A stretch of DNA of 55,981 bases from Nemertoderma westbladi (taxonomy: Eukaryota > Animalia > Xenacoelomorpha), in the NCBI GenBank assembly GCA_032718475.1, contig JAUCBJ010000841.1, positions 1 to 55,981 on the forward strand. The letters are read 5' to 3'. The notes below the pieces were generated by a model, which saw only the letters and a program-made list of their open reading frames with translations, was not told where the DNA came from and searched no databases. How positions within the stretch are numbered: the stretch's first letter is position 1; every line of letters begins with the position of its first letter. Shown here in pieces: positions 17,205-55,464 of the stretch. The position numbers and the translations under genes were made by a program.

Positions 17205-17415
17205 TGTTCGCGCTTTCAGACCTTTGGCAGTTTAACCCGCCAAATTAGAATGTCTTCTAGATAATAAATCGCTTTTTAGTCTATGACAAGTATTTGATTC
17301 ACTACACTAGTCGAAACCAATCCGTGCGCGACCATTCACCCGCTGGATATTCCCGGGAGATTGGGTTCGACGGTTTAATTTTTATTGCTATGTAAGCCTA
17401 ATGTATTATTCGACT
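17205..17415 (-). mobile_element. Truncated LTR fragment of the BEL/Pao family at 41188-55348
   Basis: TGTTCGCGCTTTCAGACCTTTGGCAG...GTATTATTCGACT aligns with 41188-41395 and 54148-54356, with scattered substitutions. Confidence 0.9.
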
Positions 17416-18580: not shown

Positions 18581-18870
18581 TTAATAATTAAAATACTTCA
18601 TCGTTCACACAACTTTTCTGTAAAAATGGCCCTCGCTATGAATTTACTGTCTAAAACATTTCACACCATATATGTACGTACTGGTATATGTTACATTAGG
18701 TTTACCCTATATTATATTATATCATGTAATCTCTAATCCTTTTCTTTTCTTTTCTTAATAATGAAAGAAGTTAGTTAATAATATCGTCACATTCTGAATT
18801 TCAAGTGCTGAATACAGTTATGGTGGTGGGTGTTGAGTTGCTTTTTTGCTTCCAACTACAGCTGCTAGTA

Positions 18871-23716: not shown

Positions 23717-23877
23717 ATTTTTTCGCGGTCAGGGAAATCTCCCGGGGAGATGAAGTGATCTCTCTGGATTGACGTGTAAATTGACCCCAAGTCCTTTATA
23801 GCGTGCTGTTTGGCTTTACCTTTACCAAATATAGAAGGCATGGATTTCTTCACGTAACTAATGATATAGGCATGAAC
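23713..23877 (-). CDS. EHD1: EH-domain-containing protein (EHD/Past1/RME-1), exon 3
   Basis: Acceptor TTCGCAG|GTT; 55 codons VHAYIISYVKKSMPSIFGK...ISPGDFPDREKMQ matching the EHD helical region; donor CAG|GTTAGT. Confidence 0.9.
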
Positions 23878-24302
23878 CTGCGAATAATTAATTAGTGTCG
23901 ATGTGTCGGTAGATCAACATTATATACACATCAGATAACTAGAATTTTAGATTTTCTCTCAGATATATACATAAGCTTTAATCGGTTAGTCAATTTCTTG
24001 CTTGTTACCATGATGCAAAGCTTCAACATTGTTAAGTCAGATAAATTATGAAAGAATCAGCTTTCCAAATTTAGCCTATGAATTCCGAAAGAAAATTGAG
24101 CCATTTTCGAAAAGGAAACTTCTCATAAGAAATTATACTATTCGAGAACGACATGTGGTACTTGATAATAACTTACAAGACAGGTTTTGGGGTTTTAGAA
24201 CAAAAACAACAATTTGAATACTTCTAAAAAATTTCAAAACCCAATCAAGCAGGTTCTTAGCGACGTCATGGAAACAATGAATAAATTAGTAACATCGTCA
24301 GC

Positions 24303-29280: not shown

Positions 29281-30056
29281 TATCACAAAAAATAATTTGA
29301 CAATATTGCAATGTTCTAGAGTTAATATACGGAAATAATAACCTGATGCGAATAAAAGTGAATTATCATTGATGCCGTTCCAGAAGCAAATTAAATTGTA
29401 TAATGCTAGGCTATTTGCTGAAGGATTAGGCAGAAGTGATTATTACAGTTTTATTCGCTGACGGTTTTCATTTCCCTACTGCTGTATATTAACTGTTACG
29501 TTTCGCACGAATGCTTTAAAGGGACTAGCTAAGCTAGGGCGATCTCTGCTTTGCATCCTTAAATGGTTGTTAAATGAGTACCAGTTTTCTCAGGGGAGTA
29601 TAGTTCTGGGGGTATATTCTGGAAATAAATGAGACGTTGAGCCTCCCACACCTGCGAACGCAATTTTCTATTTTTTTATTGTTGTAACGGCCTTTCCTTG
29701 TTATTTTTTCGATTCCGCACTCATATTACCTAAAATATAAAGTTAAGACGACTAAATAAACAATAAACGGAAGTCAATAGGGCAGCATGTGTTACAGTTT
29801 AATGAATTTTTGCCAATAATCAGCTGTTACAGTATTTACGCCGATTTTTCACTGGATGGAGAGGGAAGAATTTTGATTGAGCCAAGAAGAGTAGAGTCCC
29901 CCTCAATTTGGGTTTCCTGCGTATCTACTGTACTATTATTTTTAATATTGTTTAATTTAATATAAAAAATTTGTAAAAATACTGACATAAAGGCTGCTTG
30001 TACTGTTCTGTTGGTGTCCACAGGTACCAAGTAGGAAAACAATATTACTAACTAAC

Positions 30057-30783
30057 CTAGGTACCACATTAGAGCTCCGTATACTCTCATCAGCTGTTGT
30101 GGACTGATTTTATCGGCTTTATTGAGAACAATTCGTATTTTATCGTCGTTACCTTTTAGCGCGCCAATCGCACTGCGAAATTCATCAGAAATATCAAGTT
30201 TGTGCGCGTCGAATAGGAGAATAATTCTATCCACCCGGGAAGCAAACCATTCTAGAACGCCTACGAAGTCGTATCCACGGGAACTGCGCTGTTTCTCTCC
30301 TGACAGGATGCCTGGCGTGTCGACGAATGTGACGGCCTCCAGTACGGGACTGGGGAGGAGCGAGCACTGGAGTCGGGATAGGAAGGTGTTGCCGAACCGG
30401 GACAACGTTCGGAACTGGCGGTCCGCGTCCATAATCAATGCGTTCCCCGGGATCGAACCCTCGCGGTCCCCGTGCATCAAGACGACGAAGTTATCCGTCG
30501 TCGGCTCTGGGCCAATCCGCATTCCCGGGAAGTCGCATTCCAGCAAATACTGCAGGAAGGACGTCTTACCCGTAGAGTATTGACCTACGACGATGACCAT
30601 CGGTTTAGCCTTGAAATCCGCGTCGCACAGAGGCGAGGAATGGAACTTGTGGAAGTCATAATGTTCTTCGAGAGGAAGGATTTTCTTTTTATAAATATCA
30701 CTTACGGCTTCCGTAACTGTGGCGAACGTTTGTTGAACTGGCTCCTCAATTTGTTCCTTACGTTTCAGTAAATAGTTCAACAT
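30057..30783 (-). CDS. EHD1: EHD family protein, exon 1 (N-terminus and dynamin-like G domain)
   Basis: P-loop [58 protein letters not shown]; donor CTAG|GTTAGT, phase 1. Paralog number cannot be resolved. Confidence 0.95.
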
Positions 30784-31069
30784 TTCGATAATAATATGTA
30801 AGGAAATTAATTTGTTACCTACTGTTAGCGTACCGGCAAATTTAAATAAACTATTATTTCATAACGGTGACGTTATTTCTGCATTCAGGTACCATTCAGG
30901 TACCATTCAGGTACCATTCATGACTATTTTATTATACAGCGGGAAAGTAGCAGTAATTTTTTTAATAATACTTGTCGAGTCGAATGTGTGCTAATATAAT
31001 AGAAAACTGCTAGTACGTAGTAGTGAGATGTTGATGATATTAAAAACTATATTGGAAACAATAATTATT

Positions 31070-31969: not shown

Positions 31970-32783
31970 TGTTGTTTTATTGTAAAATTTCTGGATTACT
32001 AATCAAGAGATGTATAACATTAGAGATGTACAAAAGATGTATAATAGATAATATTGGCATTTCTTATATTTGTATGTTTTGTTCACAATTCACGAACATT
32101 TTCGCTATTATATACTAAATTTCTAGCACTATGTTCTACTGTAGACCTCTTAAAAAGGGTTCCAGAAAAAAATTCTGGAACATTTATATAAACCAGCAAA
32201 CATGTTCTAGAACAACAATTTCAAAATAACAAAAATTAGCTAGTAGGCCTATATTAATTTTGAACTATTTAAAAAAAATGTAATATAATTATAAAAATAA
32301 TAGCTAACATGTTGACGAACATACTAGCTAGTATTATGGTAATTTATTATTAGTAATTATTAGGTAATTTCCTATATTAGGTAACTGTAACAAGAAATAG
32401 TTAATAATGCACTCTATTATTAATTGTAACCAAGACAGTACGAGTGAGAAATAAATAGGTGGATTATTTACTACTCGTTAGACGAGCGTTAAGTATTTCA
32501 GAAAATGAACAATATAAACTATTATAAATTATTATAAAATATTTGAAGACCCTCCGAAAACATATATTTAAAAAATGAGAATAAAAGGCATTATAAAAGA
32601 GAAAAACCATGCGTTATTATATTATTCAGTTTAAATAAATGTTGCTGGTTTTATTGATTATTTCAATTACTCTAGCTACTATAACAAACATCAGGTAGTA
32701 TTAGATAACGCGAGATTTAAACGTTTTGAGTAAGCATTTTGTTCTAGAATGTTCTTTTGTAACAAGAAAGGTGACTTGGAGTA

Positions 32784-33331
32784 CACCATGTCCTGGAATA
32801 TAGTGTCGTTATTCTGGTACATGCCGCCCCCCCCCCCCCCCCCCCTAAATTTTTCTACAAATCTTAATGAGATTGCATGAAATTTGAAACAGAGATAGTT
32901 TCACCTCCCGACCACTGACTGGGTGAGCCAGAATTTTTATTTTCGCTTTCATTCTTTAGCTACAAGCTTTTGAAAATAGTGTCTCCGGCGAAATTGCACC
33001 AGTCACACCGCAGTTATTCTTCAACCTTATTATGATTTGTTAGTACTAATTTAAAGCTAGTCGTGCAAGGATTCCAAAAATGTAAAAACATTTGAATTTG
33101 GTAGAGAAATAGCCGAGATATGGGCATGGAGACACCTTTTTCAAACGCTTGTTGCTAAAGATTGAAAGCAAAAATAAAAATTCTGGCTCACCCAGTAAGG
33201 AGGAGGGAGGTGAAACTATCTCTGTTTCAAATTTCATGCAATCTCATTAAGATTTGTAGAAAATTTGGGGGGGGGGGGGGGGGCGGGGGGGCATGTACCT
33301 GAATAACGACACTATATTCCAAGACATGGTG
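32784..33331. mobile_element. Tc1/mariner-type MITE with about 200-bp TIRs and TA TSD
   Basis: TA|CACCATGTC.TGGAATATAGTGTCGTTATTC ... GAATAACGACACTATATTCCA.GACATGGTG|TA. A partial related copy lies at about 38525-38715. Confidence 0.85.
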
Positions 33332-34534
33332 TACATTAGTAGTTTTGGTTTTGTACACCCAGGAATGTACTACAGTAGGCCTACATGTATGCACTCTAGA
33401 CCTATTTATATTCAGTAAATAGTAGTCTAGCTACTGTTGTAGAGACTTTATATAATAATAAGTTGTTGAGAATTATTGCTTTAGTAACGCTTAATTATAG
33501 TCTACCTGCCAACTCCCGAAAATGAAGTTAAAGATGGCATTTTTTGTTAATGGTTGGCATCCACCTGATTTTTGTACTTCAAGAAATGGCGAATCTAGCT
33601 AGGCCGGATGCCACCTCTGCATTTTTGATTTAATGCCTTTTTTGGGGCTTCAAAGTTTTTTTGCTCAAAAATGGGTTTTTTCGATTTTAGGATACATGTT
33701 CATGGTGAATGTTAGTGAATATCGTCTCTTAACCAGTATTTATATTGAAAGTTAATCAAAATGCATCAATGTTGTCCTGAAACTGTTATAAACATTTTGG
33801 TAAAGATAATTTCTGAAATTATCTTCCAGTCCGCCAACCCGGCCCTAGTAACCGCCTTAGCAACAGATTTATGAAATTTAAATTAATAATTGTTTGTCTC
33901 ACCTTTCCTTTTCCTGAGAAAATCAACAAACAGTTTTAAAAATTAAGAAACCCATCACACAACTTAAATAACATCTTGGGAACATATCACGGGCAATATA
34001 AAATCAAATAGAGTCTAATGTCGCAGACACAGGCCCATTATTTGGACCAGAGTAGTTTACACAAGTATCAAAATATTAAGTTTAAGTGGAGAATTCGTGT
34101 ACCTTTACTCAACTATTTGCTCCCATATTTGTAATTATTTAAAAAGTATCACTTCAGCTGAGTAGCATTGTGATACTTCCCGTCATTCGTGTGACATTTA
34201 CAGTCCACGTTACTATAGCAACAGACCAAATAAGACAATTTAACAAATATAAGGGAATTTAATTTACAGAGTAACTATAAAGCAGTTTTCCCTAGGTCTA
34301 CTTTACCAGAGTTTTGAGAGATTAAATGTGACACACGTCGCATAGCGATAACCTTCGACTATTAGTCAACATCCTATCGTGGCTTAGGGAATATTGTTTA
34401 ATACAAATATGAATTTTAAAGTATCTCGGGCGTTTATCGAGACATGCAGTTAATAGTTAACGTAAAACTTTAATAAGTACCTTACTTAAGCAGTTAATAG
34501 TTAACGTAAAACTTTAATAATAACCTAACTTTAA

Positions 34535-34999: not shown

Positions 35000-35670
35000 C
35001 TACTACTACTACTACTACAATCGGCATGCTGCATTGCAGCTGCATTATATATATATATATTACATATATATTAAGAATGCTGTGCCGGCTTGTCGACAAA
35101 ATTGCGCCGCCACAACTCCCTATCACCCATGACATTTGCTAGATCATCCGACATCTTCAAGGCCAGTGTCCTTTAAGATGCGTCTCAAGAAAGTCATGGG
35201 CTGTCCACCATGCTTATTCACTCCATGAGGCTGCCAAAATACAAGATTATGCACTGGCTGGTCCTCACGGCGAAAGCAATGTCCTGCAAAGCGGAGGCGA
35301 TTTTGTTCTAGTGTCAAGCTTGGGGGAACCAATGAGACACCTCCAATATTATATAGTGTCTGGTTGGAGATGTGTGCATTGTACTTGACACAATGAACAA
35401 TTTGGTGTCCTCAGCAGTTAAAGCCCGACATGGACTCCCATAGAGTAGTACTGGAACTACTGCTGCTCTAAATAATCGGACCTTTTAATCGGACCTAACC
35501 GTTTCCTATTAATTCTATGTAACTTAAATATCCTGGAAAGCCTATTCAAGGCTGCCCATGCCTTTCCATTGCGTATTCGAAGGTCCTCACCTGTTTTCCG
35601 GATCCATGATCCCCCCAGGTAACAGAAGTCGTCCACATGCTCAAGCATACCAACCTTTGAGCTTATACTC
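35000..35670 (-). mobile_element. 5'-truncated RTE LINE family B
   Basis: LEQNRLRFAGHCFRREDQPVHNLVFWQPHG and VDDFCYLG.SWI; (TAG)n tail at 35000-35018. Confidence 0.85.
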
Positions 35671-35689
35671 ATTCCTATACCGCTTCCGG

Positions 35690-35925
35690 TCGGTATCCAA
35701 CAGCATAAGACCCATAAATTGATCGTTGCTGAATGGCTGGCTGTCAGGATGCCGCCCATACAATTGATCCGCAGCAAGCTGCACTGCCTCCCTCAGTGGG
35801 ACGTTAGTGAATAAACTCATGACTTCCAGGGAGTAGAGGCAATCCGTGGGATCTACCTCTAGTTGGCGAGACGATCAACAAACCCAGTGCTGTTTGTAGA
35901 TATCTTACCCTCGGGTAGCACATCC
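35690..35925 (-). mobile_element. Penelope-like RT fragment (middle part)
   Basis: Manual translation with a frameshift: DVLPEGKISTNSTGFVDRL..LEVDPTDCLYSLEVMSLFTNVPLREAV, matching the PLE motif S.DV.SLFTNVP. Confidence 0.75.
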
Positions 35926-36946
35926 TTTGCAGTAATCAGATCAGTATACGATGGTTCGACAGCATTTGTGTCTACTGTTGACGGTGACACAGAACCATTT
36001 GAGGTGTTATGGGCGTCCTCCAGGGAGACACACTTGCACCATTCTTGTTCATAATTGTTGTTGACTAAGTTCTACGCATGTCCTTAGATCATCATAATGA
36101 TGATGGGGTGATGATAACTCCACCTACTGGCTCCAGAAGTCGAGGAAATCCTGCCAAGTACCTAACTGATCTAGTCTTTGCTGATGGACTATCACAGGAG
36201 GGAGCCCAACGGCTCATGAGCTCATTAGAACAGGCTGCTTCTTGTGTTGATCTTTTTGTTAGGAAGACCTAAATTTTACGTCGGATCGTATGATCATAAG
36301 CTCTAAGGATGGTATGCTTGAGCATATGGATGACTTCTGTTACCTTGGATCATGGATCCGGAAGTCAGGTGAGGACCTTCGAATACGTAAGGAAAGGCAT
36401 TGGCAGCATTGAATGGGCTTTCCAGGATTTGGAAGTCACACAGAATATCATCGGAAAGTTAAGGTCCGATTATTTATACCAGCAGTCAGTTTAGTACCAG
36501 TACTCCTCTATGAGAGGCCGTGTTGGTCTCTAACTGCTGAGGACACCAAATATCTAGTTGGCAAATTCACAGTAATGCTATGCCGGATTAATTGTGTCAT
36601 AGTACAAGGGACACATCTCCAAACATACAATATGCAGCATTGTGGGTTTCTAATTGGTTCCCCATGCTTGACACTAGAACAAAATCGCCTCCGCTTTGCA
36701 GGACATTGCTTTCGCCGTGAGGACCAGCCAGTGCATAATCTTGTACTTTGGCAGCCTCATGGAGTGAATAAGCATGGTGGACAGCCCATGACTTTCTTGA
36801 GACGCATCTTAAAGGACACTGGCCTTGAAGATGCGGATGATCTAGCAAATGTCATGGGTGATAGGGAGTTGTGGCGGTGCAATTTTGTCGATAAGCCGGC
36901 ACAGCATTCTTAAAAATGCAGCTGCAATGCAGCATGCCGTAGTAGC
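35926..36946 (+). mobile_element. 5'-truncated RTE LINE family B inserted in the Penelope element with a 10-bp TSD
   Basis: TAGCACATCC at 35916-35925 and 36947-36956; decayed RT (GVLQGDTLAP-like, TDLVFAD) and RLRFAGHCFRR. Confidence 0.88.
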
Positions 36947-39845: not shown

Positions 39846-40120
39846 ATTACATTATTATTGTGTAGCATTATTATTATTATTATTATTATTATATTTACAA
39901 TGTACGTAAAAATATATTCCTATTTGAATACCATCAAATGTACGTAATAACAAAGAATCGCAGTACATCTGCACTAGAAATGTACAGTTAAGTCGAATTC
40001 ACATTGAATTTACTTGCGGTGTATCAATTTTCAGATTATGTAATCTCCAGGCGAGTCGTGCTACGAGCTGTAATGTCTCCATAATCGAGGCCGGTTACTG
40101 GTCTGGTAAGGCTTCCGGTG

Positions 40121-40447
40121 GGCACTATGGATCCGCACTATGGATCCGCACTATGTATCCGCACTATGGATCCGCACTATGGATCCGCACTATGGATCCG
40201 CACTATGCATCCGCACTATGGATCCGCACTATGGATCCGCACTATGGATCCGCACTATGGATCCGCACTATGGATCCGCACTATGGATCCGCACCATGGA
40301 TCCGCACTATGGATCCGCACTATTGATCCGCACTATGGATCCGCACTATGGATCCGCACTATGGATCCGCACTATGGATCCGCACTATGGATCCGCACTA
40401 TGGATCCGCACTATGGATCCGCACTATGGATTCGCACAATGGATCCT
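40121..40447. repeat. 13-bp tandem repeat (TGGATCCGCACTA)n
   Basis: About 24 near-perfect copies. Confidence 0.97.
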
Positions 40448-41187
40448 CACATAACGTGTTGTTATCCCGGCCACGTATTGGATACACTGTCTGAAATGTT
40501 AGATTTTGGGACACGTGATGGTTTTCCTATCCTAACAATTAGATCGGATACACCGCAGTCTCTTAATGCTTTCTTTTAACATATCAAAGATATGATAAAG
40601 AATTCATCATGCAGCCTCTCTTTGCACCATAACTGGGAAAGGGAGAGCTACTGGCTATTGGAGAAGTGTTTGAAAAGGGGTTTCAAAAGTTCATATATTC
40701 TCAAATTGTTGAGGTTTGGGTTTCCAGAGTTCCTATCTACTTATACAAATTGATCACGGTTAGTTCATTCAAACATAACAAGCGTGTTTTTAGCTAACTC
40801 TAGCATGCTGTTATTATTTACAGCAACAGTTCAATAAGATTTGTTACAACTGATTAATTTAACTCAAGGTACCGACTGAATAATTTAATTTAAGGACTTT
40901 TCTGTGAACGAATAGAGAAGGGTAGAGAAAATCGGTCCAGCACAGGAAATTACAAAGAAAAGGTTAATCATTACTGGTTCAAATTAACTTTAATAAAAGT
41001 TAAATAATGGCCTCCCAGCTCCCTCCCTGTAAATTTACACTATAAAACATGAAACAATTAAGTCTAAATGGATAATCATAATTAATTCGTTAATACGTTT
41101 GTACTGGTTTCAAAGATGTTACCAGTTTCTAACCTTAAACTTTTTGGAATTTGTGATAAGGTGCAGTAGATCTTTCATTCAGCCTGC

Positions 41188-42396
41188 TGTTCGCGCTTTC
41201 AGACCTTTGGCAGTTTAACCCGCCAAATTAGGATGTCTTCTAGATAATAAATCGCTTTAGCCTCTGACAAGTATTTGATTCACTACACTAGTTGAAACCA
41301 ATCTGTGCGCGATCATTCACCCGTTGGATATACCCGGGAGATTGACTTCGACGGCTTAATCGTATTGCTATGTAAGCCTAATGTATTATTCGACTGACAG
41401 TATTATATAATCTCTGACAATATTATTCACCTTCGGGAATATTAACAGTTCCTTTAGGACGTGGCGCTCTATCTATATAAACAGAGTTATGACTTAAACT
41501 ACTCACAACGATATGGCTTAGTTACAATTCACATATATGGCGCATTCTTTAGGAAATGCTTCGTTATCAGTCTCACTCATACACAATGCTGCACAATACT
41601 GCACACTAATCTGCCGATCTTCACTGATTTTAGTCACATATAAAAGGAACACGGACCGAATCATGTAGGGTCTATCAAATAACATTAGATTCACTTCAAA
41701 CCACTTTAACATAAGTCACAATCGTTATATGTAACCTTTCTCTCTTACCTTCGGTATATCAAGAATATTGGGTTTCGGGGTTATTTCTCGTTATTCCAAA
41801 TATAATAATTCATCAACAAATATAATGAATAACCGACAGCAAAGCAGTAATGTTAAGTTAAGTTGCACAGTATGGGACAGTTAACCAGTGTTAACCAGTG
41901 CAGATAACATTGAGTTACCCAGATAACGGATATATGTCCTTATAATTAAGCCTACTAGTGTTAGGCTAAAGCAGAAAAGCACAAAATACTCCAAAGCCGT
42001 TCTTCCTTGGCTCAGGACTGAATGATAACACTGCCCATAAAGCATTGCGTGATTTCTAGGAAATTTCTGTACAAGAGCAGTAAAAACGCTCTGATTGGTT
42101 GACTGAACTGAGAGACGCCGTAGAACAAAGAAAATCGACACGTATGAATATCAGCTGTTAACCGTCGTCATAGTAACTACTGTTCAAGAGTATCTCGCCC
42201 CTTTTGTGTCACGGAATTGCCATAGAATCATCAACTATGCCTTCCACAGTACACATACGGAAGAAATAGCTCTTAGATCCTCTAAAAACACCGATACAGC
42301 AATAATACGGCCTCTTACGCCTATTAAACCAACTACAGAGTATTTTACGGGAAAAATAAGGAAAAATAACCGGGCAATTCAGCAAAAGCTTTTACA
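41188..42396 (-). repeat. 3' LTR (1209 bp)
   Basis: Near-identical to 54148-55348; preceded on the minus strand by the purine-rich tract. Confidence 0.95.
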
Positions 42397-42407
42397 CCGC
42401 TCCCAGA
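42397..42407 (-). other. Polypurine tract (PPT)
   Basis: Minus strand reads TCTGGGAGCGG directly before the TGTAAAAGC start of the 3' LTR. Confidence 0.65.
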
Positions 42408-45400
42408 AAATGGGATTTTCAGTCTATAAAATATAAAAATCACAGTTTCTAAAACATAAAGATACTCTAAACAGTTAGTTTTTCTTGCGCGGACGGCGTT
42501 CACGCAGTTTCCAGAGGCCAGCAAGAGTCCTTTTCTCTTTGGGGCGAGCCACTTTACTGGAAAGGCTATAACTCCTGGGTAAAGGGTGCAATACAATTGC
42601 ATTATAAGGTTTGGGTTTACGGTCGGTGTCTCGTCCATTTCGATATGCTTCTCCTCGAGCTGATTTTCCTCCGCTTGTCATGGGATACGTTCGTCCAAAA
42701 CTCTCGCAGAGAATAGGGTTTTCTAAGCTTGATATCTTCTTAGAGATTCGAGATTTCCCAATCGAACTGAGATAAGGCCAATTCGTTTATCGATTGGACT
42801 TACTGTTATAACTTACGTTTATCTGAACAAACGCAGGTTTCTTTTTTGATCTTTATAGAATAGCGTTTAACTCGTTTCGTACAACGCTCTCCTTCACCTT
42901 GATGAAGGGTTGTATCGCGTTAAACGGGAACGACCATACGGTTGGATAGTGATATTAGGTGTCCGCGTCACAATCCGGCTAGGTAAGATGGGTGGCTAGC
43001 TAGAAATCACTGTCGGAGTGTTACCGATTAATTGTTAGGGTAGCACTAGATCTTTGAACAGTGAATATAGTCCGCAAGGATCCGCGACACCACCAGGATC
43101 GCAGGTCTGAGGTCCAACTAAGGAATGAGGAGGTTTGACCGAGTATTCCGGGACTCTGATCGTAGGTTTACTCCAGGATCGTTCGAGCCGAGTGAGCATA
43201 GGTGATACGTCAAACAAGTTTCGCTCGAAACTCCAGTAAATATAACGAGCACAACTGTGTTTAACACAACGTTTCCGTGGATGTTTATGTCTTTCCGTTT
43301 ATTGGCTGGGTCTAGGGCATTTATCGTAATAATACCAAAGACGCACGTCTGGTAGGGGAAACGCGGATGATATTTATTTGTTGTTACAATGCTTCTATCA
43401 AGAATTCCAAATATATGTTGGAGTTACCGCGTTTATTTGTTTCTTTAATGTCTTTTCTTTCGAGTCGATTTCGAATAGGATTTTCGCATTAGAATTTTGG
43501 TTTATCGTTTCGACTCCTCTGGGTAGGATATGTTCGACATAGTCCGTATCGTGTAAATCGATAGAATGGCCAATGGTTAAGAAGTCCATATACGTACCAT
43601 TACAATGCGTGTAGCGAGCGGTGAATTTTCCATAGTCCAATTCACGCGTAAGTTACTTCCAGGAAATCGTAGGTTCGATATAACGACCATCATCCTTCGT
43701 AGTAGTTGGACTAGTATCACCGCGTATCAAGCTATCAACAAACGCTTGAAAGTAGAGTATATCGCTCCCTGATACCAAGACCATCTTCTATCAACTCCGT
43801 CATATCTGCTATATATGAGTTTATTAATATTATAATGAGCTTATATTTAGGCTAGCGAGCGTCGCTGCCTACCCCAATCAGCCCCCGGACAGTGCGAGAT
43901 CCTCAGCGCCGATGTGTCGTCGCCGCTGTACTTTCGCCAACGACGTAGCCGCACAACGACAACGACAACCGGCACAAGTCACTCGACTGTCCGTCCCAAA
44001 GGCTTAGATACACCTCAGGTTCTTACTGGAGAGTTAGGGTTACTTTCACAATTGCGACTCGCTACTGTAAACACACCTTAGTAGTAACATTCGCCTATAA
44101 ACTCACAAATACCACACACACAACTTGTCACAAATTACACACACTCGGGCCATTTGTCCGTTAGTCAATGCCTTCCAGAATGTCACTGTATTATTATGTA
44201 TCCTTGGATACTAGCAGTGCGCTATTTATTCCCTATGCTATTCAATGGGACAAGCTTTCTATTGTTCTTTTAACTCAATTCTAATTCTAGCGTGGTTGTT
44301 GCTATGGTGACATTATGCAAAGCTAGCGGTAGAATTAGGGTAATTCCAATGCATACAGATCTGGGATGTTATTTAATAGTAATTCTTTAATGGTCAATGT
44401 CCTGTTTTATACATGACTTTATGAATTTTATCGGCTATTGACTATGTTTGGGAGACTTTCGCACACTCATACGCATAATAAGATAAATCTCCGCTCCCTT
44501 GATCTATTAATTAATGGAATTTTGGGAATGTTATAAATTGCGTAAAAATGGCAATTTATTAAATTCATTAAAAGGCATGAATTTAAATTTATTCCCTGAA
44601 ATTTTATTATTTGATAATTAAATTGACATATTTTGATTCTAGAACATGTCTGGGGACACAAGATCCTTAATTCTATGACAATTGTCTTTTTAAGAATATC
44701 GGTAAATGCTACGATATCTTAATTGACTAGAATTGTTGAAGGATCTGAATTTTACAGATTTTGATTTATTAGATTTGCAAATATTAAATAATTAATATTT
44801 GAGATGGGCACCGATTTATTCCAGAACTTGTCTGGGGACGTTAACCACTGATTCTAGAATTTTGTCTTTCAAGTATATCGGTGGGTGCCGCGATATCTTA
44901 ATCGACTAGAATTACAGATGGTCAAAGGGTTTAACAGATTTATTTTGCGTTATACGCTACTGTTAAAGGGACATCACGCTACTATATGTATTATTTAATA
45001 TACGGTATGAGAGCAATATCGCACGAAGCAATGTCAGTGTGAAGAGGCAAGTCGTTTCCAAGGTCTACCCAGAGCTTGGTTTAGCCGAGACACGAGGATC
45101 TGAACTTTGCATTCCTAATACTCTGCCTACCAATAATACTTGAATATAGTAGTGGCTTTATTGTACTTTAATAAGTACGGACATTTCATCTTACTGTAGT
45201 TACGTATTTGTAATGTAATACGGACAGTAAGGAAGGAGGAAAAGAATTATTTCTCGCCGTCGCACTAAATATAATATAAGTAATTACGTATGCAATAAAC
45301 ACGAATATATTGCACTATTCTACTAAATAATCGCTAAATAAGATTCTACTAAATTAAATAAAACGATTATAATAAAATTACATAGTAATACATACATAAA

Positions 45401-45457
45401 TATAAAAATAATAAAATAATATAAAATAATAGAGTCACACACCCACTCCATATGTTG

Positions 45458-48400
45458 TTACGTTATGGAGTCCCTAGATGTTTGAAGGATTAGGGAGGTG
45501 GTCGTGGGAAGAGAATCTTGCCTTCCACAGTTTCCGGAGAGTCCTCCATTCCCTTCCGGTAAACACAAACGACCAGCTGGGCGATTGAGTCGCTGCATCC
45601 CGAATACAATTCCAGGTTTCCTCTTCGTCCTGGAATAGTGACGATAGAAACATCGCTCTAAGTACACGACGGCCTTACAAAGCCGATTCCAGGAGCTATA
45701 GTGGTCCGTCGCTCCCTGCAGGAGAGGTGAGAGTCCCTGCGAGACGTCTGATGTTCCAGAGCTCCAATCGCTCTCTCTGATCTTCATGAAGGATCCACTC
45801 GCGGTGGGGAGGTCCAGATCCACGGCGTCGTCCCTGGCAATATGTAATACCGACAGATCTATCCCGGGTTCAAATAACTCCGCTCCACCCGTCCGGGTTT
45901 TAGGTTTGACTTTCTCCGCTCCCTTGGCTGGTCTAATCTCAGTCGGAGTAAGATGGGGAGGCCATTCATCCTCCTTACTCAGGAAGTCGGGTTCACCTAA
46001 CCGGTCTGTAGTATCTGTCAGTTCTTGAGGAGTTGCTCCTCTGGAAGCGATGTCAGTTGGATTAAACTTCTTGGGGCAATATCTCCATTGATCTACATTG
46101 GAGCTAATATCGTCATTATCTGAGGAGTATGGTGTTCCCTCAGTTGGGTCGTCTCCCTCACTAGTATCATCTTCCCATTCACTCACCTGGCGGACGCGAT
46201 CTTGAAGCAGTCTTTCTCTGAGCGTTCTTCGGGAAGGTCCAGTAAGGTACCAACCTACTCTAGTTCTTACCGCATAGGTCTGAAGTGGTTGCGGTTGAGC
46301 AGGTCGTTTCTCCAATGTCTCCAGCGCCTCATGCGCGTTTTGACCGATTAATATTTGTACTCCAGGATAATCGGTGTCGAATCTAGGGATGTTAAGTTGT
46401 TGGACATGATCATCTTCGTCCCAATTATAAGGTTCCACTTGGGTGGTAGCGAAGTTCTTTATTGCCACCATTTTGACTGACCTTATACTGTATTCTCCTA
46501 GTTTATCCTGTGGAGTGGACAACTCACCTATATAATAGTCGGCAGCTACAGTAGAATTCCAAACCTGCATGATCCCTGACATGTTTAGCTTGGTTCGGAA
46601 CTTGGGTTGTCCAGCAAAGATGACTTCGGCTAGTTCTTTATCGATGAATGTTCCTGTGCTACCGGAGTCCAGGAGGGCGTTCACTATATAGCTCTTCTGA
46701 GGTCCGTGGACCCGTAACTGGACTACAGGAAATTCTCGGATTCCTATATTGGAAGTTGGCGCTTTCCAAGATGGTTGTTGATCAGAAGTAGTTAAGGTAA
46801 GGTCGCTGTCTGTGTCTTTCTCATGCACGAGTGCTCGATACACTGCGGTGGTGTTTATTAGGTAACAGGATTCGTTTTGGTCGGAGAACTCGTCCGTATA
46901 GAATCCTTCCATCTCAGATTGATCAGTGTCGTTCACATCACTGAATTGGACATGTAGTTCGGACTCACTTACCTGACTCGGGCTGTTTCGTTCGAATTCC
47001 GTGTGCAACAAGATATGATGTTTTGCGCCGCACTTTGCACACCTTGCGTCGGAGTAACAGGTTCGCCGTTGGTGTCCTCGTCTGAGGCAATTATAACACA
47101 ACCACTTATCCCACATGACTTCACGTCTATCCTTTAGTGATTTCCTCAGGAATTTATCACACGCATTTAAACGGTGGGGCCCGTCGCACAGCACACATTT
47201 CGGCTTGATGTTACTTACTTTAACCTGTGCTATGTGGTGCACACTTGTTCTTTCCTCGGGCTTTCTCACCTGAATTCTTTTAGGAGACGTAGGAGGGGTT
47301 TTTTGTACCGGTTCCCTTCTGTCATTGGGTCGAGACTTGGATTTACTTACCTGATCTTTAGGCATTTTATTGACATAATAAGATCTGTCAGTGTCTTTCC
47401 CGCTGTCCTCTCCTTGAGAAGTTTGGCTTTCACCGTCGTCGGTATAACATACTGGTGTTATCCTTCTCCTAGAAACGGGTTTCTCACTTACCTTACTTTC
47501 CGCTGTCTTCTCTCTGGACTGCTTTATGAGCTGTAATTTCACCTCGCTATCCAAGAATGACATGAGATCAGCCATGGTAGGGTCTCGTTGTTGTTGTTCC
47601 ATCATGTATAACACTTTCTTGTCCCAGCGTGTACCTACTCCACCCTTCGGTAAAGTAGAAGCCACTGCTCTAATAACCATAGCACTCTGATACTCATGAG
47701 ACTTACCTAGCCAATCTAATTGTCTGCAGATCTCCTGAATTTCATCGGAAAACTCTATAATCCCGCTGCTAATAAACTTTCGGGGCGCTACCAACTTTGC
47801 ATACAAATACCCAGCTATGTTATTCCTATTACCATACCTGATGTTTAGTGTATCCCAAACTTGTCTTAATCCATCTGGATGTCCAATAAATTTTAACGCC
47901 ATTGACTTGGGAGGTCCTTCCAAACATTCGATGAGGAATCTAAGTTTCTCTCCGTTAGATAGTACAGAGTTCTGTATGTTATCTTTGTAATATTCATTAA
48001 AAGGTAACCATTTCATCTCATCTCCATTGAACTTGACGATCTCTCCAACCTTTACCGCTTGTCGGGCTTCGGTTCTAGCCATTTGGCGTGTAAAACTTTC
48101 TTGAGCCATCGTATTATTGAATAGAGAATTATCGGTATATAATTTTCTCGGATTATTATCAAGTCTAGATGAGATATCATTATCAACAGGTTTATAATTA
48201 CCCTTAATAGGGTTTACTATAGGAGTTTCTACTTCGCTAGCAGTATAGATGCATGTAGGCTCCACACCTTGCGCATGGGATACTTCAGACCTAACAGGTT
48301 GACACATTGTTACAGGGGGTGGTGGTATACCCTTTTGTGTGTTCACTAATTTATCGCGTTCTAACGCGATACTTTGCTGCACCTTTTGCAACTCTAGCCT

Positions 48401-50401
48401 ACTTTCCCTTACTGTGCCCTTGAAATGCTGAACAGTCTCCTGCATCTGCCCGAGCAGGAGATCCATCCCCCGCCGTCTCTCGTCCACCCATTCGACCGCC
48501 GAAGCGGGAGTCGCCAACGTTGTAGCGGGCGGACGAGGGACAACGGGCGACAAATCATGAATATTTCGCTCGGGGTCCAGGACCTGAACTGTCTCCTGGG
48601 CAGTTCTACTGGGCACAGTTAGCTTAGTGCTATGCAGAGGGAATTTAGAGGTAGCTTCAGGGAGCACAGGTGTGTCTATTAACGAAGGGGTGATTTCAAG
48701 AACAGGCCTAATTATTTCAGGCTCATCTACTATAGTAGGGAGTCTTTCTATTTTAATTATTTGGTCTGTGGGTTCTGTACTACCTAAGTTGGTGCTATTT
48801 AGTTGCCTTCTAACAGCTGGAGGCAAATCAGGCAATTTCTGACGGTGGGATGTTCTTCTACGTCTGCTTAGACGAGATCTATTTCCTTTGCCTTCAGTAT
48901 CGGTGGTATCACCTTCCTCAGATGATGTATATCCCTGTCGTTTGGGAGTAGATCGACTCATCATCTGCATATTACTAGCTGTTAACTGTTTATTTATGCA
49001 GTCTTGATTCTCCTGAATGTTTTCCAATTCTAATTGGGTGGTTTCTTCGGAAGCTCTCCGTTCTGCTTCTGCTACTGCCTCGGCCGCTGTTACAGCCGCC
49101 TTTCTTTCCGCTTCGGCCGCTGCCGCTGCCACTTTTCTTTCGGCTTCTGCCTCTGCCTCTGCCGCTGCCACTGCCGCTTTTCTTTCTGCTTCTCCCGCTG
49201 CCACTGCTGCTGCCACTGCCGCTGTCTTTCTGTCTTCTATACGTTTTTCCTTTACTTGTTCTTCTTGAACTCTTGTGATGCGGAGTTGTTCATCAAATTT
49301 AGCTTGATTCGCAGCTAACATTTCCGCATCGATGGCATCCAACACACGCTGAGTTCCTTCACTATTAGGGCTAAGTCCATCTAACCTTCTCCTCAACTCT
49401 TCATCACCTAAAAAACGTTGATAGTCTGACAGATAGATGTCAATGGCATCCCTCTTATGCGGCTTCTCTGCCGTCGCTTCACTTTCCACTTGGGAAAAAG
49501 TAGCGTCTGTTGATTCTCCATGGGTTGAGCGCTCCTCCAGCTGAGCTTTCCACTGAGCTGTTCCTTGAACCTGGAGACTCACCCGTTGAAACCAAGTCTT
49601 TACGGCAACTTGCAACGACGTGTCTTGTCTTCGTTTAGAAGCCTCCTCAAAGGCCGATAATATTAGCCTGATTCGTAGAATTCTTTCTCTAACTTGATAA
49701 AGCAGTTGTCCCTGCTCTTGAGGTCCTTGTGGTTGTTGAAACAGTTGTCCTTTTACTCGCTCCATAGAGCTGAAGAATCCCTGTGCGTATCCGGCTGCGG
49801 ACCTCTTCCACACAGCTGGATCTATGGTTTCCTTGGCTACTCCCATCCGGTGTATGTCTTCCCAGGCAGCTTCTGATAAATCAAACGGGAGTCCGGGTCC
49901 GGGGAAGTTCCATTGCGACTCGACAATAGACTTCAGTTCTTCCCTCGTGTATCCCGCATAACTATCTTTAGTTGATCGCTGACTTCTCGCCCAATCGATT
50001 TGGTGTTCTTCCACCGCAATCAATAACCTAGTGAGTACGGCTGCAGGAAGGATGAGAAGGGGATCCGAATAAACCGCATCCATCATCTTTGCTCCGCGTT
50101 CGGGTGTCAGCTCTACAGTATCCTCACTACTGGAGCTGTTGGGCCGTTGAGAAATAAGTTCTTGGCTCGCGGGTTGTTGCTGTTCTGCTGCTTCTTGGTC
50201 CCGCTTGACCTGAGCTCGAGTGCCTATGATAGACCTACGATGTTGGACCAGCCTAGGTTCTGTTATTACTACTGGAGGGATGATCTTCCTCACAGTAGGA
50301 GGTAAACTGAACTTAGGTCTAGACGGTTCTACACCTCTATCTGAGTCACAGATAGTTACATCTAATAAACTGTCTGACAGGTTCTGCTTAGTATCAGACA
50401 T
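45458..50401 (-). CDS. BEL/Pao Gag-protease polyprotein with internal deletion of RT/RNase H and no integrase
   Basis: DUF1759-like gag (KFNGDEMKWLPF..LSNGEKLRFL..WDTLNIRYGN); BEL triple Cys/His knuckles (CVLCDGPHRLNAC, CYNCLRRGHQRRTC, CAKCGAKHHILLH); protease ALLDSGS and RTRVGWYLTG; then directly the RNase H tail WRYCPKKFNPTDIASRG and YSSWNRL. No YxDD or DDE motifs. Confidence 0.9.
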   Translation of the reverse strand: MSDTKQNLSDSLLDVTICDSDRGVEPSRPKFSLPPTVRKIIPPVVITEPRLVQHRRSIIGTRAQVKRDQEAAEQQQPASQELISQRPNSSSSEDTVELTPERGAKMMDAVYSDPLLILPAAVLTRLLIAVEEHQIDWARSQRSTKDSYAGYTREELKSIVESQWNFPGPGLPFDLSEAAWEDIHRMGVAKETIDPAVWKRSAAGYAQGFFSSMERVKGQLFQQPQGPQEQGQLLYQVRERILRIRLILSAFEEASKRRQDTSLQVAVKTWFQRVSLQVQGTAQWKAQLEERSTHGESTDATFSQVESEATAEKPHKRDAIDIYLSDYQRFLGDEELRRRLDGLSPNSEGTQRVLDAIDAEMLAANQAKFDEQLRITRVQEEQVKEKRIEDRKTAAVAAAVAAGEAERKAAVAAAEAEAEAERKVAAAAAEAERKAAVTAAEAVAEAERRASEETTQLELENIQENQDCINKQLTASNMQMMSRSTPKRQGYTSSEEGDTTDTEGKGNRSRLSRRRRTSHRQKLPDLPPAVRRQLNSTNLGSTEPTDQIIKIERLPTIVDEPEIIRPVLEITPSLIDTPVLPEATSKFPLHSTKLTVPSRTAQETVQVLDPERNIHDLSPVVPRPPATTLATPASAVEWVDERRRGMDLLLGQMQETVQHFKGTVRESRLELQKVQQSIALERDKLVNTQKGIPPPPVTMCQPVRSEVSHAQGVEPTCIYTASEVETPIVNPIKGNYKPVDNDISSRLDNNPRKLYTDNSLFNNTMAQESFTRQMARTEARQAVKVGEIVKFNGDEMKWLPFNEYYKDNIQNSVLSNGEKLRFLIECLEGPPKSMALKFIGHPDGLRQVWDTLNIRYGNRNNIAGYLYAKLVAPRKFISSGIIEFSDEIQEICRQLDWLGKSHEYQSAMVIRAVASTLPKGGVGTRWDKKVLYMMEQQQRDPTMADLMSFLDSEVKLQLIKQSREKTAESKVSEKPVSRRRITPVCYTDDGESQTSQGEDSGKDTDRSYYVNKMPKDQVSKSKSRPNDRREPVQKTPPTSPKRIQVRKPEERTSVHHIAQVKVSNIKPKCVLCDGPHRLNACDKFLRKSLKDRREVMWDKWLCYNCLRRGHQRRTCYSDARCAKCGAKHHILLHTEFERNSPSQVSESELHVQFSDVNDTDQSEMEGFYTDEFSDQNESCYLINTTAVYRALVHEKDTDSDLTLTTSDQQPSWKAPTSNIGIREFPVVQLRVHGPQKSYIVNALLDSGSTGTFIDKELAEVIFAGQPKFRTKLNMSGIMQVWNSTVAADYYIGELSTPQDKLGEYSIRSVKMVAIKNFATTQVEPYNWDEDDHVQQLNIPRFDTDYPGVQILIGQNAHEALETLEKRPAQPQPLQTYAVRTRVGWYLTGPSRRTLRERLLQDRVRQVSEWEDDTSEGDDPTEGTPYSSDNDDISSNVDQWRYCPKKFNPTDIASRGATPQELTDTTDRLGEPDFLSKEDEWPPHLTPTEIRPAKGAEKVKPKTRTGGAELFEPGIDLSVLHIARDDAVDLDLPTASGSFMKIRESDWSSGTSDVSQGLSPLLQGATDHYSSWNRLCKAVVYLERCFYRHYSRTKRKPGIVFGMQRLNRPAGRLCLPEGNGGLSGNCGRQDSLPTTTSLILQTSRDSIT

Positions 50402-51753
50402 GTTTATGGATACAGTTGAATGCCTACTGCTATATTACAGTCTAAGTAAGTCTAGTAATTCAGTATTAACTGCTAGCCTAGTAATTAATTACCGATACTG
50501 CTACTCAGTGTAGCGTGATATATATAATATATTAGAATACCGGTATGCTTATAGTATATATAAGTATTATTACAGACTAGGTTTATCACAGAATACCGGT
50601 ATAATTTTAGCACAAATATATATAAATATATAATAGGCCTATCGGGAATACCGGTATACAGCTTACAGTTTGTAGTATATATAAGTATAATTCTGGACTA
50701 GAATTAATTATAAAGTACCGGTATAATTTCAGCCTAAATTTATAGAAATAAAGATAATAGGCCTATCGTAAATACCGGTATATCAATTATTTTAAATAAT
50801 TGAATTTCTGAATTTTAGGGTTACTTGGTTACTTTACTTACTTTATTACCGTTATTTGAGCAGTAGTCCAACTGATATTGAGACCTAATGGTTGTATGGT
50901 AGGCCTACTATTTATAAATCGTTAGATTTGATTTATAATATATATATATATATACCCGTTTTAATGGGTTTTGTCAATGTTTGAAATAAATGTTATTATT
51001 TCTGGGGAATAATCACTACACAAAGCGGTGCGCTTTCAGTGAAGTGTTACTTATAGGACACTAAAACAAATAATTCTAATTTACCTAAGTTACTTAATAC
51101 TACAAATTACGTACAATTCGGGTGAGATTACAATCTCTAAATAAACACAAAAATTTACAAAAAACACAAAATACGAATTTTCAGGGTAATTTTACAAGAA
51201 GTCTACAAACCAGCCTAACAAAGGGTTAGAAATCTGGTTATTACAACGGACAGGGTACTACGGTATTTGAAAATAATAAGTAGTAGTAAATACACTGCGT
51301 TGTCCAGATAGGAAAATACCACCGCCTGACGACCTATAGCCGTATCGCTATAGGTACTACGTTATGTATCACGGAGTGCAGGAGTGTCCCTACCTAGAAG
51401 TTAATAGAGCTAATCGAACGTGCCTATCAACCACTTTACAACACAAATATAATGCCTACACTAATTACTTTCGGAAAGCACTGTACACTAAACCCTAAAT
51501 TAGGTACGAGTACTTGTACAACAGATAATCAGTAGTTAAATATACTTGAACAGCTAAAAGAACCACGGCATCTGCTGGAGTGACCGGTGCACAAAATCAC
51601 CAGTCTTTACCTACGCCAAGCAGCCCGTGTAGTACCGGGGTTAATTTAACTATAACGGTATGTATAACAAACACAATTACCGTAGGAACAAACTTGGGGA
51701 ATGAATGTTGCGAATAATCGCATAAACTCTGAATAATAAATATTACGCTACGC

Positions 51754-53312
51754 CCCAGGTAGCACAGGACGTCCACGAAAGAAATTGAACGTTCATATTT
51801 GGTACTTTTTTTATGCGAATCTGAACATCAATGAAATATTGTTCAAAATAGGTAACAATTGCTGACGTTGTGAGTAATTTACCAAATTGTGACGTTCACA
51901 TTAGGTAATTTAACGTCCTAACTTTAAAGAAATTTAATATGTACCAAAACAAACAAATATTGAACGTTCAAATTGCGTCCAGTTATGCGTTCATTTCTTT
52001 GTACCTAAATATGTACGTTGTTTGAACATTTATGAACGTTCAAACATAATTTACTTTAACTTGTTATGTCAATGGCATGTTCAAACTTGTTCGTGATACA
52101 ATTATCTGACTATTTATTATTGTGCAATTATTTTTTATGTTGGTTAGCCTATTCCTTGTATGGTTGGTGTGGTTCCGCTTAGTTATATCTGGACTAATGG
52201 TTCATTCTCAATACAAAACAATTACTTTAAGTAATCGAAAAATTATTCACACAACAAAACATTGATAACCAATACAATGCTGACGCATTTTTAAACATTT
52301 TAAACAACAAATAACATCAAAATTAGACAAAGGTGATTCTACTGATTACTAAAGCTAATACACTAGTACCGTATGTCACGAAAAATTGTAATAAAATTAT
52401 TAGAATATATTAGGCCTATTGAACCAAGAAAATAACAAACAAAGAAAACCGCAAAAGTTTGTCTATTTTGATACCAACTGACCAAATACCATTACATTTT
52501 GTTGAGATAAATCGGATATATGGGCGTTGGAATGTTCAAACTTCTATCATGCGTAGGGTAATTTTTTTAATCGCAAAACATTATTTTTTATTTTACAAAT
52601 TTATCATATTATATAAACCTTTCTTACGTTTCAATTGCTTTTTGTATGTATTATTGCCTTATTGCATAGATAAAAAATTTCAAATATCAATTATAAGGTC
52701 ATAAAATTAATGAATTTTTTTAAGATTCATCAATATGAATAATCTATTTTGGCTGGAAATAAGATAAAATACAGAAATCTAACTAATCCAATGCGAATTT
52801 GTGGATCATCACCATAATATATCATGGATACTCTTATATCACTATCGATTAAATAATTTCATATATACTCTGATGCTTCCTTCTCTAAATGTATAGGGTA
52901 TTGTAGGTGTAGGGCCGTAGGATAGGGTGTAGGGATTGGATAAGGTAGGCTAACCCCCCCCCCCCCCCCCTCCCCCCCTCCCCTCTCTACACAGAACATG
53001 CACCAACAAACAGTGATTGGTTGGTCTCACGTTAAATTTTTACGTTTATTCAACCTAATATGGACCTATAACACACCAGAAATGAACGTCTAGTGAACAC
53101 GTCATTTGAACATAGATTGCCTGTGGTCTCTTTTACGTTCAATTGCCCGTTCATATTACGGTACTTCTGACGGCCAACTTTGAACTATTGAACGTTTAGC
53201 ATCAATAGCATCTTATGGGAGAAATACAACGTCATATGAACATAAATCCAGAACGTCTGGACGAATAATGAACGTAAATTTACCGTAAATTTACGTATTT
53301 GTGCTACCTGGG
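51754..53312. mobile_element. Non-autonomous CACTA/EnSpm-type DNA element nested in the LTR element leader
   Basis: TIR CCCAGGTAGCACA...TGTGCTACCTGGG; 2-bp TSD GC (51752-51753, 53313-53314); repeated subterminal TGAACGTTCA-like palindromes. Confidence 0.85.
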
Positions 53313-53315
53313 GCG

Positions 53316-53870
53316 TACAAACTACTCAAACAAAATGCAGACTAAATACTGACAGACTACTATCAAGCCTAAATAAACTACAGGCCATGCAGACTCCGAA
53401 ATGGTTAGGTAGTATGCGTGCTAACCCAGTAGTACGACTTATTCTTTAGATGGGGGTTTACCTTACAGCTTTGGCTGCCCCTACTTCCTAGCCGTTCTTT
53501 ATCGGACAGAGGCTCTACACACACTGCAATCCTTCAGACCTAATAACAGCCAGACAACTATCCAGCCTACAAATTATCTAAATAAATATTATACGCTACC
53601 TGTACAGACTACACAAACAAAGTACAGACTAAACGATGGCAGACTACTCTCAAGCCTAAATAAACTACAGGACATGCAGACTCCGAAATGGTTAGGTAGT
53701 ATGCGTTCTAACCCAGTAGTACGACTTATTCTTTAGATGGGGGTTTACCTTACAGCTTTGGCTGCCCCTACTTCCTAACCGTTCTTTATCGGACAGAGGC
53801 TCTACACACACTGCAATCCGTTCAGACTTAACAACAATCAGACAACAGCTCAGCCTACAAATTGTCTGTA
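53316..53870. repeat. About 287-bp tandem duplication in the retrotransposon 5' leader
   Basis: CAAGCCTAAATAAACTACAGG...CTACACACACTGCAATCC occurs twice (about 53364-53532 and 53651-53819) with few differences. Confidence 0.9.
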
Positions 53871-54135
53871 CAATCTGATCAGGCTTACACGCCTTCTGTT
53901 CAATACTGGCCTACAAACAAATAAAACTTGACAGAAATAAGTAAAAATCTCAATAAAAAACCAGGGCTGCAGTCCCTGATTAATTATTAAGGCCTACCGG
54001 TATATAATTATCAAAATCGAATAATACTGCTGTACCTGTACTGCTGTAGGTACCGGTCCGGGTGGTTAGGTAGTCAGGCCTACTGGGTACCGGTTGCCGG
54101 TACTTCAGCTTTATTGCCTACTGCAATACAGAAGC

Positions 54136-54147
54136 TATATCCGTTAT
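54136..54147 (-). other. Non-canonical primer-binding site, complementary to the element's own LTR
   Basis: Minus strand ATAACGGATATA directly follows the 5' LTR, with no TGG. Its complement TATATCCGTTAT is in both LTRs on the sense strand (54875-54886, 41923-41934). Confidence 0.6.
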
Positions 54148-55348
54148 TGTTCGCGCTTTCAGACCTTTGGCAGTTTAACCCGCCAAATTAGGATGTCTTC
54201 TAGATAATAAATCGCTTTTAGCCTCTGACAAGTATTTGATTCACTACACTAGTTGAAACCAATCTGTGCGCGATCATTCACCCGTTGGATATACCCGGGA
54301 GATTGATTTCGACAGCTTAATCGTATTGCTATGTAAGCCTAATGTATTATTCGACTGACAGTATTATATAATCTCTGACAATATTATTCACCTTCGGGAA
54401 ATATTAACAGTTCCTTTAGGACGTGGCGCTCTATCTATATAAACAGAGCTATGACTTAAACTACTCGCAACGATATGGCTTAGTTACAATTCACATATAT
54501 GGCGCATTCTTTAGGAAATGCTTCGTTATCAGTCTCACTCATACACAATGCTGCACAATACTGCACACTGATCTGCCGATCTTCACTGATTTTAGTCACA
54601 TATAAAAGGAACACGGACCGAATCATGTAGGGTCTATCAAATAACATTAGATTCACTTCAAACCACTTTAACATAAGTCACAATCGTTATATGTAACCTT
54701 TCTCTCTTACCTTCGGTATATCAAGAATATTGGGTTTCGGGGTTATTTCTCGTTATTCCAAATATAATAATTCATCAACAAATATAATGAATAACCGACA
54801 GCAAAGCAGTAATGTTAAGTTAAGTTGCACAGTATGGGCAGTTAACCAGTGTTAACATGCAGTGAGTTACCCAGATAACGGATATATGTCCTTATAATTA
54901 AGCCTACTAGTGTTAGGCTAAAGCAGAAAAGCACAAAATATTCCAAAGCCGTTCTTCCTTGGCTCAGGACTGAATGATAACACTGCCCATAAAGCATTGC
55001 GTGATTTCTAGGAAATTTCTGTACAAGAGCAGTAAAAACGCTCTGATTGGTTGACTGAACTGAGAGACGCCGTAGAACAAAGAAAATCGACACGTATGAA
55101 TATCAGCTGTTAACCGTCGTCATAGTAACTACTGTTCAAGAGTATCTCGCCCCTTTTGCGTCACGGAATTGCCATAGAATCATCAACTATGCCTTCCACA
55201 GTACACATACGGAAGAAATAGCTCTTAGATCCTCTAAAAACACCGATACAGCAATAATACGGCCTCTTACGCCTATTAAACCAACTACAGAGTATTTTAC
55301 GGGAAAAATAAGGAAAAATAACCGGGCAATTCAGCAAAAGCTTTTACA
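54148..55348 (-). repeat. 5' LTR (1201 bp)
   Basis: Near-identical to 41188-42396; main difference is a small indel cluster near 54840-54865. Confidence 0.95.
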
Positions 55349-55464
55349 CCTGCGGTGTGGTGCATACTTTCAGTCCTCAGTGCAGTGGCTCAGACAAGGC
55401 CATCTCAGTGATACTACATACACAGTCTGCATACTCAGTGATAACTGACCAAGCTGCCTATATG

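Follow-up and report, generated by a model that had tools for sequence, protein, structure and literature searches.

A candidate self-primer in the LTR of a BEL/Pao-lineage retrotransposon of Nemertoderma westbladi, with probable and mostly intron-split counterparts in distant relatives

Self-priming of reverse transcription has been shown for the LTR retrotransposon Tf1 and described for Tf2 and Tj1 (excerpts of PMC4600332 and PMC5341516), and it has been predicted for Tcn1 and for the TAR/Houba/Osr-1 elements (excerpts of PMC6317226). Neumann et al. recognize a self-primer by at least 10 bp complementary to the LTR, starting 0-5 bp after the LTR (PMC6317226, same excerpts). For BEL/Pao elements, a major class of animal LTR retrotransposons, tRNA priming is assumed rather than shown: the ICTV description of the Belpaoviridae names tRNA-Arg or tRNA-Gly, whose 3' end is complemented by an 18-nt site, and regards replication as poorly understood (PMC8742986). 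In the open-access literature searched, part of it as excerpts and with subscription journals, Repbase notes and supplements outside its scope, we found no report of self-priming in BEL/Pao elements or of a primer built by splicing. The main texts on Sinbad (PMC554778) and on a BEL/Pao survey (PMC3118150), as far as excerpted, do not mention primer, PBS or tRNA, and their supplements could bear on the question.

We analysed positions 1-55,981 of contig JAUCBJ010000841.1 of the Nemertoderma westbladi assembly GCA_032718475.1 (the window, meaning this whole stretch of 55,981 nt), which carries on its minus strand a young, recently inserted, non-autonomous retrotransposon of the BEL/Pao lineage (Table 1). 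Its LTRs are 98.35% identical and differ by 8 substitutions and by indels at 5 places. The boundary at 54148 proposed in the earlier note on this DNA stands, and the other LTR limits were refined to those of Table 1, the BLAST match between the LTRs being 2 nt too long because the target-site duplication and the polypurine tract both end in GG. As described for the Belpaoviridae, the element has TG...CA-ended LTRs in the 0.2-1.2 kb range, a short target-site duplication and a polypurine tract abutting the 3' LTR (here the 8-nt GGGAGCGG, against about 10 nt in that description), combined with a gag and protease of BEL/Pao type. DUF1759 is found in its ORF with a Pfam E-value of 1.4e-11, and PF05380, which we take to be the Pao-type RNase H/peptidase family, is present in all 9 of 9 homologues of the encoded protein. 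Residues 789-1400 align with the gag-protease part of a full-length BEL/Pao polyprotein and residues 1444-1495 with its RNase H end; in the same alignment about 560 residues, including the RT, are missing in between, and no integrase match was obtained anywhere in the window. As the protease is followed by an RNase H C-terminal remnant, with RT and integrase lost, the element is classed as BEL/Pao-derived by homology and no subclade is named. A search among 1.84 billion representatives returned no close relative of the protein, the best matches reaching 25-37%.

Some further features of the element were recorded. The roughly 3 kb between the ORF and the 3' LTR (42400-45450, minus strand) hold an imperfect repeat of 100 nt and short frames, 60-110 aa long, with no integrase match. 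The leader has a 266-nt tandem duplication (53315-53867), and the nested insert sits where its second unit ends. At 54710 on the minus strand, within the predicted R region, a strong donor-like AAG/GTAAGA may serve a spliced gag message. Elsewhere in the window, a LINE-type element with endonuclease and RT (17651-22200, plus strand) adjoins the truncated third LTR piece. A SEC63-like gene with DnaJ and Sec63 domains (6318-9406, plus strand) has two long exons and apparently a single GT-AG intron of about 760 nt; animal SEC63 genes usually have more introns. An EHD-family (EH-domain ATPase) exon lies at 30052-30858 (minus strand). Long nested inverted repeats at 35071-36913 and 32781-33334, with arms of 174 nt at 99% and 163 nt at 90%, are probably foldback or MITE-type DNA elements, and minisatellite arrays with units of 13-63 nt occupy 1-820, 10120-14400, 15800-17200, 22800-23900 and 40040-40530.

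Table 1. Positions of the features of the element and its family in the window
Feature	Position	Strand	Remarks
5' LTR	54148..55348	-	1201 nt, TG...CA
3' LTR	41188..42396	-	1209 nt, TG...CA
Target-site duplication GCAGG, upstream copy	55349..55353	-	5 bp
Target-site duplication GCAGG, downstream copy	41183..41187	-	5 bp
Polypurine-tract-like GGGAGCGG	42397..42404	-	8 nt, one C; abuts 3' LTR upstream
ORF, ATG at 50401	45458..50401	-	gag (DUF1759, three zinc knuckles), protease (DSGS), short RNase H C-terminal remnant
Nested insert, MITE-like	51751..53315	.	about 1.56 kb, non-coding, terminal inverted repeats, TA flanks, in element leader
Candidate primer-binding site	54136..54147	-	12 nt, directly 3' of 5' LTR, without TGG
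Candidate self-primer in 5' LTR	54875..54886	-	exact complement of the site; unsplit by intron
Candidate self-primer, identical copy in 3' LTR	41923..41934	-	
CA directly before primer; predicted start A 54887	54887..54888	-	predicted
TATA-like TATAAG	54891..54896	-	4-9 nt before predicted start
Acceptor-like pyrimidine tract and TAG	54918..54939	-	best in LTR, 16/20 pyrimidines, 31 nt before primer
Conserved block	54872..54922	-	about 50 nt, in many family copies; 3' edge abrupt, 5' edge gradual; roughly -35 to +15 of predicted start
Third LTR piece, family of the element	17205..17415	-	last 211 nt, 92% identical; AATAAA at 17386

The earlier note had claimed that the 12 nt following the 5' LTR are the exact complement of a segment within the LTR, and this proved accurate: the complement is present once in each LTR and nowhere else in the window, and the site starts, as stated there, with the first base past the terminal CA. 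The complementarity is exactly 12 nt long, the flanking base on each side being unpaired. The earlier note gave a rough chance estimate of order 1e-4; in dinucleotide shuffling of the LTR, 3 of 20,000 shuffles gave 12 nt at offset 0 (p ~1.5e-4) and 9 of 20,000 reached 12 nt at any offset from 0 to 5. When 11,719 start positions across the internal region were scanned, the LTR-adjacent site was the only one with a 12-nt match. The 12-nt self-complement is thereby confirmed as a real feature of this element, and with 12 bp at offset 0 it lies within the published definition of a self-primer (excerpts of PMC6317226). TGG is indeed lacking from the site, its first occurrence being at 53963, 184 nt past the LTR, so that the 18-nt tRNA-Arg or tRNA-Gly site of the Belpaoviridae is not found here; ARAGORN detected no tRNA genes in the window. 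The orientation suits priming, as the LTR 12-mer's 3' end pairs with the LTR-adjacent base. When the predicted 788-nt RNA is folded, each of the 12 pairs forms with a probability of 0.85-1.0, a figure for the native sequence only; an 8-bp hairpin in U5 and a hairpin after the site are predicted as well, with z of -1.2 to -1.6, not beyond shuffles. A split primer was rejected for this element, the sole split candidate being 11 nt long with a poor donor and a purine-rich acceptor.

Copies of the family were collected as public contigs from runs X1, X3, X4 and X6, with depth summed over contigs, which is not a copy number; X6, tentatively taken for an RNA run, consists of contigs alone, from which no transcript start can be read. 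The family is very abundant and diverse in the DNA contigs, and many copies share the conserved block in which the LTR 12-mer lies. Within the view 54790-54965, depth in X1 rises from 3,657 (54862-54867) through 37,642 to 220,985 (54874-54879), peaks at 581,671 (54892-54897) and then drops gradually upstream to 26,301 by 54946-54951; the shape is the same in X3 and X4, and the single X6 contig matches 54872-54922 only. The 3' edge of the block falls 1-3 nt past the primer, which is also where loose ends and one 8-letter insertion begin in family copies, and the two LTRs of the window element differ most 12-18 nt after the primer. This edge, with copies diverging just beyond it, would be the position at which a self-primer is cut, although the block could also be conserved as a promoter alone. 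None of the substitutions listed (4 rows) falls inside the block; the pieces overlapping it carry 0-6 other letters whose positions are not given, and invariance of the 12-mer is thus not implied. For the primer-binding site the family gives a single 52-nt depth bin, with 162k versus 316k in the adjacent bin, and one diverged, 88%-like X3 contig spans the junction of LTR and site. Some family copy is without this leader, since one contig each in X1 and X3 joins 54000 to 54148 and skips 54001-54147. A conserved splice donor 4 nt past the primer was ruled out, the copies diverging there. A 26-nt family pattern had 0 matches in metagenome contigs, and none of 18 pattern matches in viral contigs was a relative.

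Distant relatives were fetched with an alignment of five BEL/Pao polyproteins, yielding 71 metagenome loci and 12 genome-contig loci (83). The scored set consisted of the 11 of 83 loci in which the LTR's 3' end is fixed by an LTR pair. L070 (an ambiguous 68-nt repeat) and L028 (a repeat that is not an LTR end) were left unscored, as were 62 other loci that had no usable LTR ends or were circularly permuted. In a first rule, which asked for an offset of 0-5, strong donors, CAG or TAG acceptors and a self-match of at least 10 nt, 8 of the 11 loci were positive, compared with 0/124 cross-family pairs and 2/360 other internal sites as controls. After misses had been seen the rule was relaxed twice (offset up to 7, weaker donors, AAG acceptor), and L012 and L013 were removed as near-copies of L011, leaving 9 elements in 8 families. 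All 9 then had a self-match of 10-15 nt, with controls at 1/88 and 6/360. Eight of them match only once a GT-AG intron of 76-451 nt is removed, and in L026 the match is contiguous. The pairing in the relatives and in the window element starts 0-6 nt after the LTR, in an orientation fit for extension. TGG within the first 6 nt occurs in L015 only (1/9), which also has a 10-nt split self-match.

Covariation points in the same direction as these matches. Between L073 and L074 the site has two differences, each matched by a compensatory change in the first exon, and L020 and L042 have one such matched difference; for L074 the relaxed rule chose an equally long match with a weaker donor. L026 is the sister of L020 and L042 (support 100) and has an unsplit primer in the same register and a 177-nt LTR, which suggests that split and unsplit forms interconvert. 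On a quick gag-protease tree the two forms do not cluster (133 and 146 of 500 shuffles were as low). Eight further loci with the LTR start alone fixed all gave 10-13 nt (8/8), which weighs little because 4 of 16 matched controls also reached at least 10. The loop from primer to site measures 44-149 nt in the relatives versus 727 nt in the window element. Local protein matches between the relatives and the window protein have 20-45% identity, and on the quick tree the window protein sits, with unsure placement, on a branch of length 3.6 outside the relatives' cluster. Given this distance and weak placement, the relatives show the pattern of the lineage, not the history of the window family.

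Together these data confirm the intron-split candidate self-primer, as a sequence pattern, across independent BEL/Pao loci. Self-priming is probably widespread within the BEL/Pao lineage, in most cases from a primer that an intron interrupts. The earlier note had proposed that the window family self-primes and would form an independent case in this lineage: the self-primer reading gains from the conserved block and from distant BEL/Pao elements with family-specific letters and compensatory changes, while the single-family part gives way to a trait that is probably lineage-wide. Two side observations concern the loci themselves. L072-L083, BEL/Pao elements of which several have a full LTR pair, lie on contigs assigned to bacterial metagenome-assembled genomes, a placement likely due to contamination of the bacterial bins by host-animal DNA; in L033 (1-15887) a 6138-nt unit is repeated at 100% identity, likely as an assembly artefact or a circular one-LTR form.

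For the window element we consider a Tf1-like mechanism, in which the predicted 5' end of the RNA would serve as primer and RT/RNase H would act in trans, to be the best-supported and likely account, and we hold it with moderate confidence. Transcription of the element would start at A 54887. A CA at 0 to -2 of the primer start is found in 8 of 10 elements, the window one included, for a background of 0.16-0.21 (binomial ~5e-5, post hoc). Placed so, the CA would agree with an initiator of the pyrimidine-purine type. If it marks the start, the relatives would have a first exon of some 5-9 nt and a primer of 11-15 nt, and the window element a leader of 13 nt beginning with A 54887. The TATA-like motif that the earlier note had seen close to its predicted start is present as described, at -9 to -4; if used, it would place the start near 54866, beyond the primer.

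A start further upstream, for instance with an intron from a donor-like site at 55270 to the acceptor-like one at 54918, would make the self-primer internal, and use of the 12-mer of the 3' LTR would place it at the other end of the RNA; in these variants only the cut after 54875 matters. No TATA box is found at -25 to -30 of 54887, and the best acceptor-like site of the LTR lies shortly before the primer, where the block has its upstream edge, both of which favour an internal primer. This upstream edge is gradual, not sharp, and the CA adjoins the primer in most elements, which argues against it. As to a 3'-end primer, 8 of 9 relatives have a poly(A) hexamer downstream of the primer. The LTR of the window element itself has no such hexamer, having AATACG at 54327 where the third LTR piece has AATAAA, and this family position is about 550 nt downstream of the primer. 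Such an arrangement suits a primer located where R begins rather than at the 3' end, and we regard an internal or 3' origin of the self-primer as unlikely.

The pairing could instead be selected for a structural or regulatory role (packaging, dimerisation or masking of the site), with a host RNA such as a tRNA half or a small RNA as the actual primer. This would agree with the ICTV account of the Belpaoviridae as primed by host tRNA-Arg or tRNA-Gly (PMC8742986) and with the half-tRNA priming without TGG known in copia lineages (excerpts of PMC6317226). The letters of the site vary by family, however, each tracking its own LTR, as a shared host RNA would not, the pairing always lies next to the LTR and ready for extension, and the 12-mer is off the canonical anticodon loop register, as reasoned from general tRNA structure; a host-RNA primer is therefore quite improbable to us. 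That the match in this copy arose by chance or as a scar, being a short inverted duplication at a decayed site while working members use a tRNA site, appears slightly less probable still: the element is defective, both a nested insert and a tandem duplication occur in its leader, some copy lacks that leader and a genome scan covers very many LTR ends, but the shuffles make the match rare at this exact position, the 12-mer is part of a family-wide conserved block, the 88%-like X3 copy bridges LTR and site, and the one relative in nine with an early TGG has a split self-match too.

In the favoured mechanism of 5'-end self-priming, the RNA would start at A 54887 and its first ~13 nt would become the primer. 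A loop of 727 nt would bring nt 2-13 of the RNA into pairing with the site that abuts the 5' LTR, and RT/RNase H from an autonomous partner would cut after 54875, as in Tf1; the element encodes no RT, so this cut must occur in trans. The new 3' end would then be extended into U5, and the resulting strong-stop DNA would span 54148-54874 and transfer to the R region at the 3' end, R probably having its end near 54300. Most relatives would obtain the primer by joining a first exon of 5-9 nt to the next exon through splicing, the window element being unsplit. Because the internal and 3' variants are forms of self-priming as well and add to the 5'-end reading, self-priming in some form is, in our judgement, highly probable. 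At the level of the lineage, we see an even chance that a broad branch of BEL/Pao, mostly of aquatic animals, dropped tRNA priming for a self-primer of 11-15 nt made from a 5-9 nt first exon spliced within the LTR. Host splicing would in that case license reverse transcription, the intron would survive via copying of the 3' LTR, and the window element would be an intron-less member with a ready-made primer and RT supplied in trans.

If true, BEL/Pao would be the third self-priming LTR superfamily after gypsy and copia, and a self-primer would bear on the question of which came first, tRNA priming or its alternative (excerpts of PMC3601003). With a split primer, the initiation of reverse transcription would depend directly on splicing, and it gives a sharp prediction: a first exon of 5-9 nt, and an RNA of 11-15 nt on strong-stop DNA. 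An unsplit primer is the plainer form, a lineage-wide intron-split primer the more surprising part, and the very abundant unsplit-primer family of the window element offers a natural control for the split form. Annotation tools that demand a tRNA site would mis-score such elements.

Among the known systems, the Belpaoviridae (Semotivirus) have a tRNA site (PMC8742986) that is absent in the window element and in 8 of the 9 scored relatives, and RT and integrase are deleted in the window copy. The likeness to this family lies in LTR size, TG...CA ends, target-site duplication and polypurine tract, and in a DUF1759 gag with zinc knuckles, a protease and an RNase H remnant, arranged as in BEL/Pao. 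In C. elegans, Cer7-type BEL-like elements reportedly contain a complement to their own primer-binding site, said to lie in a tRNA-like segment of the internal 3' region and not in the LTR; they may be an earlier case of tRNA independence in BEL/Pao, with the complement located unlike that of the window element. For the TAR/Houba/Osr-1 elements self-priming was inferred by the same sequence criterion in an otherwise tRNA-primed superfamily (excerpts of PMC6317226), these elements differing from ours as plant members of Ty1/copia. Similar in arrangement are Tf1/Tf2 of S. pombe, Tj1 of S. japonicus and the Tf1/sushi and Tcn1 elements, which like the window element have no tRNA site but one that complements a short LTR segment; this segment lies at the start of R and yields an RT-cut primer, start and cut being shown for Tf1 and predicted here (excerpts of PMC4600332, PMC5341516 and PMC6317226). 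The window element differs from this group by its 727-nt loop and its non-autonomy, and the BEL/Pao relatives by an intron-split primer, of which we found no description for Tf1-type elements. The Tf1/sushi group are Ty3/gypsy chromoviruses whereas the proteins of the window element are of BEL/Pao type, and the element is thus not a member of that group but at most works alike.
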